Below are positions 10,078 to 14,701 of a DNA stretch of 32,000 nucleotides, in pieces. Made by a program: the position numbers and the translations under genes. Source of the DNA: Synechococcus sp. A15-24 (lineage in GTDB: Bacteria > Cyanobacteriota > Cyanobacteriia > PCC-6307 > Cyanobiaceae); contig NZ_CP047960.1 in NCBI RefSeq assembly GCF_014280195.1, forward strand, positions 720,001 through 752,000. The letters are read 5' to 3'. Each line of letters starts with the position of its first letter. Within the stretch, counting starts at the first letter, position 1. Below the pieces are notes generated by a model. The model did not search any database, was not told the DNA's origin, and saw nothing but the letters and a program-made list of their open reading frames with translations.

Positions 10078-10314
10078 GTGCCACTTCTTCAGGATCTGGT
10101 TCAGGAGCTGCAACAACGGCTTGAAGGGCAGGCTCCGGCGCCCAGCAGTGCTGCCGTGGCTGATGCGTCCAGCTCCGAGCGCATCAACGTCACTCTGCCT
10201 CGCGGTGTCATGGATGAACTCAAACGCCATGCCCTGGAGGAAGGCCGTAGTTGCGGCAATCTGGCGGCCTACTTGGTGGAGGATGCTTTGCGCCGCCATC
10301 GCCCGCTGCATTAA
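10078..10314 (+). CDS. Ribbon-helix-helix (CopG/Arc/MetJ-like) DNA-binding protein
   Basis: GTG 10078 is the first canonical start outside the opposite-strand gene. The C-terminal RINVTLPRGVMDELKRHALEEGRSCGNLAAYLVEDALRR has the beta-strand/helix/helix pattern of RHH proteins. It is preceded by a roughly 35-aa low-complexity N-terminus. Confidence 0.65.
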   Translation: MPLLQDLVQELQQRLEGQAPAPSSAAVADASSSERINVTLPRGVMDELKRHALEEGRSCGNLAAYLVEDALRRHRPLH

Positions 10315-11380
10315 TCAAGCAGTCGTTTCGAGATGGTTTTTACCTCTCCACTGCTTTGCAGCCTGAGGATAGAGATGTTCAACGGTGTCCTCAATGGATC
10401 GCCAGTTCTGAAGGCAAAGCCGTAGGTCTGTTCCGCCAGGGTGAATGGAGCCAGTAGCACCGCCAGTTCCGGGTTGTTCTTGAGGTGAAAACGGATTGCC
10501 GGTCGATCGAAGATCACCGCTTCCGCTCTGTTCATCAATACATGGTCAATCGCTGCTGCGAGGGTCTGCGCTGGCACGATCCGCATGTTCCGCTGCTTCG
10601 CCAGTTCCGCTCCGCTCGTGCCCTCCAGCACTGCAGCTCGCTGGCCAAGGAGCTGGGCTGGATCCGTGATGCTGTTGTTCGTGTCGCCTGAAAGAAACAG
10701 GGTGAAGGCGGACGCCAGGCTGGCCGTTAAGGAGGACATCGCGATCAACGAGGTGACCATCCAGAAAGCAGTGAGGCCTCGCCCAATCCGGGTGATGGGG
10801 GCCTTGTCGCCATAGCCCACAGGGTCAGCGTCACGAGGGCGAACCACATCCCGCTTGCGATGCCGGGTAGAGGCTGCGCAGGAAACTGTTCGCTGTTGCC
10901 ACGCCGCTCCGCCAACCAGATCAGGCTGCCTACTACAAGCAGCACAGTGATCAGCACGAGCACCGACGACAGCACGGCCCATCCCAGAAACACCTGCAAT
11001 CGATTCAGCAGGGTCTTGGGCTTCAGGGGCAAAAGAATGCCTTCTTTGCCGATGAAATAGGGCTGGGTGAAATCGACCCCTGGAAGGTTGAGACGATCGG
11101 GTGTGACGCTGATCGGCCCCACCAGCAGATCAATCTCTCCGTCGTTCAAGGCAAGAATCCCCTTTTGAGGTGTTGCTTGTTGAATCAGCCGATAGGAGAG
11201 GTTGTTGTCTTCAGCAATCCTTCTCCACACCTGGAGGCTGATTCCGCTGCTGCCTCCCTCCTCCTGGATCACAAAAGGGGCGCTACCGCTGACGCCCACC
11301 TTGAGCGTCCGTGCCATCAGCGGTGGAAGCAGAAACTGCAGGCCCAGCAGCAGGCCGACTGCAACGGCAGACCGCTTCAC
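10311..11380 (-). pseudogene. GluR0-like glutamate-receptor-type K+ channel (SBP lobe 1 - TM - pore - TM - SBP lobe 2), frame-shifted at the selectivity filter
   Basis: Track ORFs 10745..11380 and 10311..10982 are two frames of one gene. The first frame gives a signal peptide (VKRSAVAVGLLLGLQFLLPPLMA), SBP-like lobe 1, a TM helix, and MWFALVTLT. The second frame gives VGYGDKAPITRIGRGLTAFWMVTSLIAM, a TM helix and SBP lobe 2. The frame change is at about 10820-10824, where only CT remains of the expected Thr codon. The span is 1070 nt (2 mod 3). Confidence 0.8.
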
Positions 11381-11457
11381 CGCTGTTCCAGTTGCTTCAC
11401 GATGACGGACATCGCGACCAGGGAACCAGCCAGAGCAATCAGGAGGGCAATGGTCAT
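11377..11457 (-). CDS. Candidate 26-aa hydrophobic micro-protein upstream of the channel gene
   Basis: ATGACCATTGCCCTCCTGATTGCTCTGGCTGGTTCCCTGGTCGCGATGTCCGTCATCGTGAAGCAACTGGAACAGCGGTGA encodes MTIALLIALAGSLVAMSVIVKQLEQR. Its TGA overlaps the GTG start of the channel gene (GTGA). Its ATG lies 7 nt after the stop of the preceding 66-aa ORF. Confidence 0.25.
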   Translation of the reverse strand: MTIALLIALAGSLVAMSVIVKQLEQR

Positions 11458-11464
11458 TGGTGGC

Positions 11465-11665
11465 TCAGGTCGCAGCAGGGACCGCCAGATTGGCATCGAT
11501 GGCCCCTAACAACCACTCAGCGACTTCCATTCTCAAGGCGTAGGCGCACTCGTAACGCCCTTGCTGTTCGAGTGACGCAAGCCTGCGCTCAAGCCAGCGC
11601 AGGGTCTCGACCGGAAGCTGGTTTGGACGCATCGAGCGCGCCACAATGCTGTGTCTAAGGATCAT
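11465..11665 (-). CDS. Candidate 66-aa hypothetical protein
   Basis: This is the 3' part of track ORF 11465..12124. ATG (complement of 11663-11665) gives MILRHSIVARSMRPNQLPVETLRWLERRLASLEQQGRYECAYALRMEVAEWLLGAIDANLAVPAAT. The rest of the long track ORF is antisense to pdeM. An alternative start is the Met of MRPNQ. Confidence 0.35.
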   Translation of the reverse strand: MILRHSIVARSMRPNQLPVETLRWLERRLASLEQQGRYECAYALRMEVAEWLLGAIDANLAVPAAT

Positions 11666-12406: not shown

Positions 12407-13884
12407 AGGACCAGACCAAGGCCGGCCAGGAACGGAAACGCATTCGTCTGCGCAAACGCTGGTTGGTTCTGGCCTCTCCTTTCGTTGTGTTGGGTGGATT
12501 GATTGCCTTGGCCCCCGATGCGCCGCAGCAGGAGCAGGTTGCTGAGACATCGCTGATCGAGCAGGAGTCCCGCAGGGATGGTGAACCGTTTCATTACATT
12601 CCCGACGATGAGGTGTATGCCCTGGATCTCGATCCAAGGCGTGTTCGCTTCGGACTGTTGGAGGGGTGGGACCGGGAGCAGGATGCTTTTGAGGACATCG
12701 CAGCTCTGGCTTACGTGTCCGGGCCGATGTACGAGCGCCATGTCGACAACGGTGGACGCGAGATCACTGTCCCGCTGGGGGACCTGAAGTTCGGTTCCCG
12801 CGTTTGGAAAGCGCGCAACCGCACGGCCTCACGCCAACGGGCTTTCATCGGCATCCGTCACAACGGCGGCGTTGATTTCAGTTACGGCGAGCTGACCGAC
12901 GCCCACATCCGCACCTACGACACCTTTATCGGTGGCTTGCACAGCCTCTACAACGACCTCGAGGACCCCCCGGAGAGCTACAAGGGGGCTTACAGCATCA
13001 GCATGGGGCAGCGGATCCGCTACTACCTGCCTCGGATTCGCATGGTGATGGGTCTGCGCGAGGACGGTCATCTGGAGGTGCTGATGAGCCGTGATGGCCT
13101 CACCCTCGAGCAGAGCAAGGACCTGGCCAGACGTCGCGGCTACCTGGCGGCCTACATGCCGGACCATGCCTCCAAGAGCCGCTTCATCATTCCCGGCGTC
13201 AAGGGGTTCACAGAAGAAGATGCCAACTGGATCAGCGGTGGTGCGACGAGTTTTGTTCATGTCCCTTACATGCTGCGGCTCAGTAACCGTCAGACTCCGC
13301 TGCGGGGTGATCTGATCGCGGACTTCAGCCCAAGGCTGACCGGGGATGAGTCCTGTGCTGGAGGGATGGATTGCCTGCAGGCCTTCGGTAACCACATGGC
13401 CGATCGAGCCCTGGCAGGACTGAATCGCGTGATAGAGCAGGGGGTGGAACCCATTGCACGAATGATCTGGGCACCCAGCAATCCGATAAAGCCGGATGTC
13501 GAACAGGTGCCTGATCCGGCATCGGATTTGGATCGCTCCCCCTTGCGTGAACCCCCGATCACCGCTGACCCCCTCGTGCTGTTGGAACCCCCTTCGCGTG
13601 TGGAGTTGGAGCGTGAACCACCGAGCCAGGATCTTGATGAAGACGAGGTTGAGGCCTTCGCACCGCAGGTGCCGCTGCCGCCGGATCTGCCTCCTCCGGT
13701 TCTGTTGGACATTCCCAGCCTGGATGCACCACTGCTGCCGGAGCTGGAGTCAGATATCGGAAGAGATGACGTGCTGGATAAGGAGATGGTGCTGGATCAG
13801 CGCGACGGTGTTGAAGGAGCGCCGCCTCCACCTGAACTCCCCCCCCTCGATCCACCAGCGTTGCCGGTCGACAGTTTCAATTAA
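12403..13884 (+). CDS. Membrane-anchored protein with a possible phosphodiester-glycosidase (DUF2233)-like domain and an acidic Pro-rich tail
   Basis: ATG 12403 overlaps the pdeM stop (ATGA). The N-terminus is basic with one TM helix (KRIRLRKRWLVLASPFVVLGGLIAL). The central region (RQRAFIGIRHNGGVDF, RIRMVMGLREDGHLEVLMSRDGLTLEQSKDLARRRGY) loosely resembles DUF2233. The last roughly 120 aa are Pro/Asp/Glu/Leu-rich (PPDLPPPVLLDIPSLDAPLLPELESD...PPPPELPPLDPPALP). Confidence 0.65.
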   Translation: MKDQTKAGQERKRIRLRKRWLVLASPFVVLGGLIALAPDAPQQEQVAETSLIEQESRRDGEPFHYIPDDEVYALDLDPRRVRFGLLEGWDREQDAFEDIAALAYVSGPMYERHVDNGGREITVPLGDLKFGSRVWKARNRTASRQRAFIGIRHNGGVDFSYGELTDAHIRTYDTFIGGLHSLYNDLEDPPESYKGAYSISMGQRIRYYLPRIRMVMGLREDGHLEVLMSRDGLTLEQSKDLARRRGYLAAYMPDHASKSRFIIPGVKGFTEEDANWISGGATSFVHVPYMLRLSNRQTPLRGDLIADFSPRLTGDESCAGGMDCLQAFGNHMADRALAGLNRVIEQGVEPIARMIWAPSNPIKPDVEQVPDPASDLDRSPLREPPITADPLVLLEPPSRVELEREPPSQDLDEDEVEAFAPQVPLPPDLPPPVLLDIPSLDAPLLPELESDIGRDDVLDKEMVLDQRDGVEGAPPPPELPPLDPPALPVDSFN

Positions 13885-14177
13885 CAGGGCAGTTCTGCGG
13901 ACAGGGTGTCAGCGCCGGAACACGCCGTTGCAGTTGCCGGGGCCGGTTTTACAAAGCAGTGACCCTCTGGAGACCAGTAGCCCAGAGCAGGCAACGCCAG
14001 GCCCTGTGCCCGGGCTTTGGCATTCACGTCGTCAACACCGCGCCCTTGCACCAGGACGTTGTTTTTGCCATCCACCAGGTCGAGGAAATCGTTCACTTTG
14101 GTTTCCTGGCCTGGGTTGGCCATGGCTTGAGCAGGCAGCAGGGCCGCCACGGTGGCGATCAGGAGGGAGCGAAACAC
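13881..14177 (-). CDS. Small secreted hypothetical protein (98 aa)
   Basis: GTG start lies 19 nt after the L,D-transpeptidase stop. The signal peptide is MFRSLLIATVAALLPAQA. The mature part has three Cys, ends in ...SAELPC, and has good G/C third-position bias. Confidence 0.6.
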   Translation of the reverse strand: MFRSLLIATVAALLPAQAMANPGQETKVNDFLDLVDGKNNVLVQGRGVDDVNAKARAQGLALPALGYWSPEGHCFVKPAPATATACSGADTLSAELPC

Positions 14178-14196
14178 GGGTGTGGTGATGGAGGAA

Positions 14197-14508
14197 TCAG
14201 TTTTTGGTGACGACGACCGGGGTACCCACCTTGATGCGGTTGTACACCTGGATCACATCGTTGTTGAGCATCCGGATGCAGCCGAGCCTGACGGCAGCAC
14301 GCAGTTTCACCCAGTTGGGCCATGCCGTGCCGTGGATGGCGTATTCACCGGTTCCAATCTGCACATAAGCCACATAGCGCACGCCAACGGGGTTGTTGGG
14401 GCCAGGGGCAATAACTTTCCCCTTCTTGTGATACACCGGCTGAGGGTCCATTTTGGTCACCGCATAGGTGCCCGCAGGCGTGAGAGATTCCGGTGCTCCG
14501 ATGGCCAC
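14197..14508 (-). CDS. L,D-transpeptidase (YkuD/ErfK) catalytic domain protein, N-terminally short or truncated
   Basis: PVAIGAPESLTPAGTYAV...PGPNNPVGVRYVAY...YAIHGT...RLGCIRMLNNDVIQVYNRIKVGTPVVV carries the HG(T) and S/x-GC-(I/V)-RM motifs of YkuD domains. The ORF opens only at GTG 14508, because its frame is closed by TGA at 14581-14583. It has no signal peptide. Confidence 0.78.
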   Translation of the reverse strand: MAIGAPESLTPAGTYAVTKMDPQPVYHKKGKVIAPGPNNPVGVRYVAYVQIGTGEYAIHGTAWPNWVKLRAAVRLGCIRMLNNDVIQVYNRIKVGTPVVVTKN

Positions 14509-14701
14509 CGGTACCGCAGAAGTAGTGAAGGTCTCCGAACAAGACCATGAGATCAGCCTCCGGGGTCCCTTCGGCGGTGTTCACAACCTCGATGTGCGTC
14601 ACAGCATCGACGGTGACCCGGTGGAACAGCTCAGCGTTGGCGATTTCGTGGAGTTCCTGATGATCAAGCCAGTCGCCATCGCCATCCGCAAGGCCAACTG
14701 A

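Follow-up and report, generated by a model that had tools for sequence, protein, structure and literature searches.

Do two overlapping open reading frames (ORFs) in a marine cyanobacterial genome encode two proteins, one protein made by an unusual route, or the remains of a single broken gene? The question arises in Synechococcus sp. A15-24, within a 32,000-nucleotide (nt) stretch of contig NZ_CP047960.1 (positions 720,001 to 752,000; hereafter "the window", in which all coordinates are given unless a locus is named), where an original prediction made from the DNA alone had placed a gene for a GluR0-type glutamate-gated K+ channel broken by a frameshift at its selectivity filter. The upstream ORF (10745..11380, minus strand) has a GTG start and encodes 211 amino acids (aa); the downstream ORF (10311..10982, minus strand) overlaps it in another frame and encodes 223 aa. 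We confirmed that these ORFs are the two halves of a single gene at 10311..11380 on the minus strand, with a GTG start at 11380..11378 and a TAA stop at 10313..10311. This disrupted gene is 1070 nt long (2 modulo 3), whereas intact orthologues are 1071 nt long; the overlap of the two ORFs, the length of the span, the change of frame at the junction and an orphan CT at that point are all as predicted.

We mapped the lesion by aligning the gene to five intact 1071-nt orthologues, from strains BOUM118 and RS9915 and from loci L015, L016 and L028. The sole difference in length is one A in the sequence ACC-ACT-GTG, corresponding to gene nt 559, which is absent from A15-24. The lost A is part of ACT, codon 187, which encodes Thr187, the first residue of the TVGYGD filter. 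In the window the lesion lies at 10821..10823 (minus strand), the A being missing between 10823, the last C of ACC, and 10822, the C of the orphan CT. The coding strand reads ATG TGG TTC GCC CTC GTG ACG CTG ACC, then CT (10822..10821), then GTG GGC TAT GGC GAC AAG GCC, such that frame 1 yields MWFALVTLT and frame 2 yields (P)VGYGDKAP. The junction in the A15-24 record is GACCCTGTGG; with the A present, as in the intact gene, it is ACCACTGTG / GACCACTGTGG. Hence, the alignment to sister genes that had been proposed as a check on the original prediction returns a 1-nt deletion at the Thr codon, where the break had been placed. All 18 other orthologue loci that span the junction keep ACC-ACT in frame, and the deleted junction is absent from the 33 loci that we fetched and from the 90% identity clusters, no search of the whole collection having been made. 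The deleted A lies outside any homopolymer, and we found no repeats or low-complexity sequence near the junction.

Codons 1–186, the in-frame 5′ part of the gene, occupy 10823..11380 (minus strand) and include the signal peptide (11312..11380), the first lobe of the ligand-binding domain, S1 (10997..11311), the first transmembrane (TM) helix, M1 (10910..10996), and the pore helix (10823..10858). Translation is out of frame after MWFALVTLT and reaches a stop 25 codons on; the resulting tail of the upstream ORF (10745..10822, minus strand), LWAMATRPPSPGLGEASLLSGWSPR followed by the stop, is a by-product of the frameshift. The 3′ part, in the shifted frame, occupies 10311..10822 (minus strand) and contains the filter remnant (T)VGYGD (10806..10822), the second TM helix, M2 (10689..10781), the second lobe, S2 (10314..10688), and the stop codon (10311..10313). 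Since the truncated product retains the signal peptide, S1, M1 and the pore helix but lacks the filter, M2 and S2, a functional channel cannot form from it. The S1-M1-P-M2-S2 order (P, pore helix) is present in the DNA but changes frame at codon 187, so that no one ORF contains all of it; likewise, the Thr codon of TVGYGD is cut to CT, leaving the pore helix and VGYGD in different frames. The 1-nt deletion at gene nt 559 thus disrupts the frame relative to intact orthologues, as is expected of a pseudogene. Because both the single S1-M1-P-M2-S2 polypeptide and the intact TVGYGD filter fail, we conclude that the A15-24 copy as encoded should be filed not as a channel but as a frameshifted, probably pseudogenised, member of its family.

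Which family this is can be read from the protein obtained by inserting one base, which is 356 aa long, the length that had been predicted and that of intact orthologues. Profile searches of this repaired protein, also proposed as a check, matched all three families named beforehand: SBP_bac_3 (residues 26–353, 7e-15), Ion_trans_2 (173–226, 1e-11) and Lig_chan (142–245, 2e-10), each with a score above the curated Pfam gathering cut-off. The SBP_bac_3 span is interrupted by Ion_trans_2 and Lig_chan at residues 142–245. The best match among solved structures is the ligand-binding core of Slr1257/GluR0 (1ii5/1iit; phmmer E = 1.7e-34), aligned in two stretches that correspond to S1 (residues 23–120) and S2 (244–353); weaker sequence matches follow to Nostoc GluR0, plant GLR3.4, GluD2 and GluN1. 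In structures of ionotropic glutamate receptors (iGluRs), an arginine of S1 and an acidic residue of S2 bind the ligand. The S1 motif GPISVTP(D/E)R is conserved, with TPDR (R96) aligned to TPER of GluR0, and the S2 motif FDRPA (D292) is aligned to FDRPA of GluR0; the R96 and D292 columns are invariant among 30 homologues. Columns T184–P195 are invariant in the same set, and LTTVGYGD is present in all intact orthologues.

The predicted order of signal peptide, S1, M1, pore helix, filter, M2 and S2 is supported by Pfam, by hydropathy and by a structural model alike. Hydropathy indicates the signal peptide, M1 and M2 only. The chain stops where S2 does, and the protein has neither an amino-terminal domain nor a TM helix past S2, in agreement with the secondary structure of the model. 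This AlphaFold2 model, made of a 97%-identical intact orthologue (P0001), is of moderate confidence (mean pLDDT 69.6) and places helices at residues 124–158 (M1), 177–187 (pore helix) and 198–230 (M2) between two alpha/beta halves. Its best fold match is again the GluR0 core (1ii5, E = 1.3e-22), with ligand-binding-domain–transmembrane-domain chains of AMPA receptors next (GluA1–4, E about 1e-19). The repaired protein is 94–97% identical to 28 listed intact cluster representatives, each exactly 356 aa long, and all of the 356-aa representatives that we read carry LVTLTTVGYGDKAP. Taken together, the sequence and fold matches, which bear out the predicted GluR0-type assignment, argue that the gene is by descent a member of the GluR0/Group 1 prokaryotic iGluR (GIC) family.

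The founding member of that family is the glutamate-gated K+ channel GluR0 (Slr1257) of Synechocystis sp. PCC 6803, of which 1ii5, 1iit and 1iiw are ligand-binding core structures. GluR0 is the closest solved relative of the A15-24 gene by both sequence and fold; the two share the order S1-M1-P-M2-S2, and neither has an amino-terminal domain or a TM helix after S2. The K+-channel signature TVGYGD is found in the intact orthologues of the A15-24 gene, whereas the A15-24 copy is frameshifted inside it. As an orthologue, the A15-24 gene is diverged and comes from the marine picocyanobacteria, a lineage in which K+ conduction and ligand specificity are putative; relatives from other cyanobacteria are 45–47% identical to it. 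By analogy with the family, the intact protein would consist of a periplasmic two-lobed binding domain (S1 and S2) interrupted by a KcsA-like pore made of M1, the pore helix, the TVGYGD filter and M2. Four such subunits would form an amino-acid-gated K+ channel, in which the pore would be pulled open as the S1/S2 clamshell closes on the ligand. Eukaryotic iGluRs (AMPA, kainate, NMDA, delta and plant GLR) have homologous modules for ligand binding and for the pore, but the A15-24-type protein lacks their amino-terminal domain and their extra TM helix after S2, and has a predicted K+-selective TVGYGD filter where they have a non-selective cation pore loop. The domain pattern exactly matches that of the "Group 1" prokaryotic iGluRs as the main text of Ger et al. 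2010 describes them, including the Ion_trans_2 signature by which the group is defined, except that the A15-24 copy is disrupted; no Synechococcus is named in that main text, the supplementary list of 100 sequences aside (PMC2950845).

Could the gene as it stands still give rise to a full-length channel? A −1 ribosomal slip, or transcriptional slippage, would restore the frame with the sequence TLTPVGYGD, since a C re-read after ACC returns translation to the downstream frame. This arithmetic is all that speaks for programmed recoding. The site (GACCCTGTG; G ACC CTG TGG) contains no X XXY YYZ heptamer and no A/T or long homopolymer, and folding of the 106 nt that begin at the site gives −32 kcal/mol, no better than the mean of −35.2 for shuffled sequences (z = +0.92). 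Programmed sites are expected to be conserved, but no conserved shift is seen among the 33 loci: no orthologue shares it, and the 18 other loci that span the site are in frame there. Moreover, recoding would replace the first Thr of TVGYG by Pro, and in K+ channels such as KcsA this Thr helps to form the innermost ion-binding site. We conclude that recoding is very improbable and effectively excluded.

Alternatively, the two halves might be expressed separately and co-assemble into a working channel. The 211-aa ORF and a 149-aa version of the downstream ORF exactly match A15-24 proteins QNJ28540.1 and QNJ28539.1, RefSeq also gives a 178-aa version of the downstream half, and the public record thus presents two separate coding sequences (CDSs), one of them named "putative ligand gated channel (GIC family)", with no pseudogene flag. 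The match also bears out Synechococcus as the source, the genus assumed in the original prediction. Although a split channel would fit this GenBank and RefSeq annotation (211 aa and 149/178 aa), the fragments themselves argue against it: the N-terminal fragment ends at TLT, the C-terminal fragment begins at M208 or with out-of-frame GVRPRDADPVGYGD, and neither has an intact pore helix plus filter. Single-chain intact orthologues dominate, and the breaks in wild relatives described below fall at many positions (nonsense mutations at codons 155 and 179, large deletions), which points to decay and not to a conserved split. We therefore regard a functional split channel as having next to no probability, lower still than that of recoding.

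If neither recoding nor a split channel is credible, is the missing A a real mutation or an error in the record? The A15-24 genome was sequenced from cultures cloned on agarose, using Illumina paired-end and mate-pair libraries; CLC served for assembly and WiseScaffolder for scaffolding, and the finishing was manual (PMC7522525). We think it probable, with some reserve, that the deletion is a real and very recent loss-of-function mutation that arose in the wild or during clonal culture. The rival explanation, which is distinctly less probable but has to be taken seriously, is that the A was lost in assembly or finishing, and that the living strain has an intact 1071-nt gene and makes a functional 356-aa channel. 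Against such an error are the Illumina data and the non-homopolymer site, since consensus errors of this technology are rare at non-homopolymer positions, as well as the lack of repeats or low-complexity sequence there. Elsewhere in the 32-kb window, each gene that we checked reads as one ORF with the length expected of it. Finally, the same gene is broken in several independent wild alleles (see below), which gives a real lesion a high prior.

Several observations weigh on the other side. The exact A15-24 proteins are found on one contig only, and the A15-24 junction recurs in none of the 33 loci that we fetched. Both halves are otherwise flawless, as had been predicted, with no second lesion in 1070 nt. 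Sister genomes made with the same pipeline have disruptions of their own within the shared 13 kb: in BOUM118, the FUR gene is split by a 1-nt deletion (delC, near position 317 of locus L012) and the CBS gene by a 1-nt insertion (insT, near position 3061 of L012); in RS9915, the phytase-like gene is split into 239 + 664 aa (locus L027, 9082–11796), where there is no indel and a stop codon is the presumed cause. All three genes are intact in the other strains, and their disruption could mean that the rate of assembly error is non-trivial.

Selection likewise provides no support for an old lesion. We computed pairwise dN/dS (omega) for each half of the gene, polarised the substitutions private to A15-24 and counted deviations at invariant columns. 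The private changes comprise 13 synonymous and 5 nonsynonymous substitutions (omega about 0.1), which equals the background of pairwise omega, 0.05–0.14. Relaxation of selection is therefore undetected, which fits either a very young lesion or an artefact such as an assembly error. The private changes are distributed 7 synonymous to 0 nonsynonymous upstream of the break and 6 to 5 downstream, a difference that is not significant (Fisher two-sided, 0.10). The nonsynonymous changes downstream include I206F, V215M, S245L and Q309L; V215M falls in an otherwise invariant column, but a comparable deviation occurs in 9 of 30 intact homologues and is not unusual. We considered this 5′/3′ contrast (one-sided p = 0.054) as proof of a pseudogene and rejected it, because a dead gene would be expected to decay upstream and downstream of the break alike, because the pooled omega equals the background and because intact pairs of alleles also have a higher omega in the 3′ half. 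On balance, the ranking of the original prediction, with recent inactivation ahead of an assembly indel and recoding last, agrees with the evidence.

The A15-24 allele also appears to be a mosaic. Its 5′ half is nearest to that of L013 (synonymous divergence, dS, of 0.097, compared with 0.24–0.26 to BOUM118 and L028), whereas its 3′ half is nearest to that of L028 (dS 0.207, compared with 0.33 to L013). This pattern suggests that intragenic recombination may have occurred among alleles of the clade.

Is A15-24 alone in having a broken copy? We looked for gene halves in the 90% clusters of the two A15-24 halves and aligned the contigs on which they lie to the intact gene. Environmental contigs provided at least six further broken alleles, all of them independent. 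The first, found in two European Nucleotide Archive (ENA) samples assembled with two assemblers (L013:135-1204 and L014:245-882, 97.3% identical to each other), has a contraction of C5 to C4 in GCC CCC (codons 193/194), which lies further downstream than the A15-24 lesion, by 22 nt. Two further ENA contigs have nonsense mutations, W155 TGG to TGA (L029:372-1442) and W179 TGG to TAG (L030:1746-2816), and a third has 1-nt deletions at nt 84 and nt 593 (L031:1291-2361). A contig from JGI (L032:2287-3262) has a frameshifting deletion of 44 nt (nt 125–168) together with a deletion of 51 nt (nt 696–746), and an allele of 85% identity in a metagenome-assembled genome (L033:1155-2226) has a +1 insertion near nt 785. 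Flanking genes on the contigs with broken alleles are intact in 17 of 17 instances; hence, these contigs are not simply poor.

Two features of the sampling reduce the weight of this comparison. Five of the seven contigs, and four of the six alleles, were reached through clusters of the A15-24 halves, an approach that favours lesions in the middle of the gene, and the frequency of broken alleles was not compared with that of neighbouring genes. We had considered a mutational hot spot in the pore, since the first five additional lesions fall in codons 155–198, but that sample is biased by the clusters; we dropped the idea, the two alleles from full-length searches having lesions at codons 42–56, 232–248 and ~262. 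A phase-variation switch at the C5 tract was another idea that we rejected, given the shortness of the tract (5 nt) and the conserved Ala-Pro that it encodes.

Most alleles are intact. At ≥81% identity there are 53 apparently full-length representatives (329–364 aa), and the four full-length relatives from a scan of JGI data (82–95% identity) are also intact. The intact alleles are under strong purifying selection (omega 0.05–0.14). We conclude that the pattern is that of an accessory gene, which is either kept and constrained or lost. The gene seems to have been lost repeatedly in this lineage, in which it is evidently dispensable, given that wild relatives have at least six breaks independent of that in A15-24. 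The occurrence of recurrent breaks beside constrained intact alleles suggests that the channel is useful only in some niches.

Counterparts of the A15-24 gene in cultured isolates are the orthologues of BOUM118 and RS9915 (P0003 and P0017), which are 95–96% identical to it in protein and 92.5% identical in DNA, are 1071 nt long and read ACC ACT GTG in frame where A15-24 lacks the A; both strains have it annotated as "putative ligand gated channel (GIC family)". Marine Synechococcus are hard to manipulate genetically. A real deletion would make A15-24 a naturally occurring null mutant for a GluR0-type channel, with BOUM118 and RS9915 as its intact wild-type partners, and such knockout/wild-type pairs of strains would allow a cheap test of the role of GluR0-type channels in cyanobacteria. 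In annotation, QNJ28540.1 and QNJ28539.1, and likewise the RefSeq versions of both, should give way to a single merged gene that is flagged as frameshifted; as they stand, the split CDSs put spurious "substrate-binding protein" and "ion channel" families into protein databases. Public annotation already contained the family, its occurrence in marine Synechococcus and the split, and what is known of the family is unchanged by the A15-24 gene; our searches of the literature on this gene in marine Synechococcus returned nothing beyond the genome paper and a review citing the GluR0 structures. Our analysis pins down the lesion, effectively rules out recoding, finds no signal of decay and documents the repeated inactivation of this gene in wild relatives.

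The channel gene is preceded by a short ORF that may bear on its function. This micro-ORF (11377..11457, minus strand) encodes a 26-aa protein with a single TM segment, MTIALLIALAGSLVAMSVIVKQLEQR, and its TGA stop overlaps the GTG start of the channel. It conforms to the pattern MT[IV]ALLIALAGSLVAMS.IVK.L.QR, with a stop/start overlap of GTGA or ATGA, and is also found upstream of the channel at L012:5924-6004 and at L017, L018, L033 and L001. Conservation extends down to the locus of a 62%-identity orthologue, mainly with synonymous changes; the micro-ORF was not seen upstream of the 46–47% orthologues, and its product matches no Pfam family. Gene calls at sister loci make it 39 aa long, with a start equivalent to 11496, but the N-terminal extension contains a stop in L014 and L032. 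The micro-ORF could encode a translationally coupled partner of the channel. A bolder proposal joins two claims: that oligotrophic marine Synechococcus are undergoing a possibly adaptive loss of the channel, A15-24 being one instance among seven or more independent knockouts, and that the 26-aa micro-protein is a hitherto unnoticed auxiliary subunit of bacterial GluR0-type channels. We regard it as improbable that both would hold together.

Synteny with BOUM118 and RS9915 extends from the amine oxidase-like and phytase-like genes to the hisA-like and FUR genes, and the order of metallophosphoesterase, 55-aa ORF, micro-ORF, channel, RHH_5 and PCC-glutaredoxin genes is the same in all three strains. 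The ORF of ~55 aa (11465..11632, minus strand; containing QLPVETLRWLERRLASLEQQGRYECAYALRMEVAEWLLGAIDANLAVPAAT) lies upstream of the micro-ORF, has no Pfam family and is nearly invariant across related loci. On the other side, a gene for an RHH_5 protein (CopG-like ribbon-helix-helix; 10078..10314, plus strand) is convergent to the channel gene, and the 3′ ends of the two overlap by 4 nt, which include the stop codon of the channel; the RHH_5 gene is intact, and this arrangement is kept, in all related loci. Scans of the window with Rfam and for tRNAs found nothing.

Further along the window, A15-24 has ~680 nt (about 13881..14700), between the gene for a 517-aa hypothetical protein and the CBS gene, that are absent from BOUM118 and RS9915. 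This insert contains a 98-aa ORF (13881..14177) with a signal-peptide-like N-terminus and no Pfam family, and a minus-strand ORF (14197..14508) with an L,D-transpeptidase YkuD domain (E = 7.6e-16).

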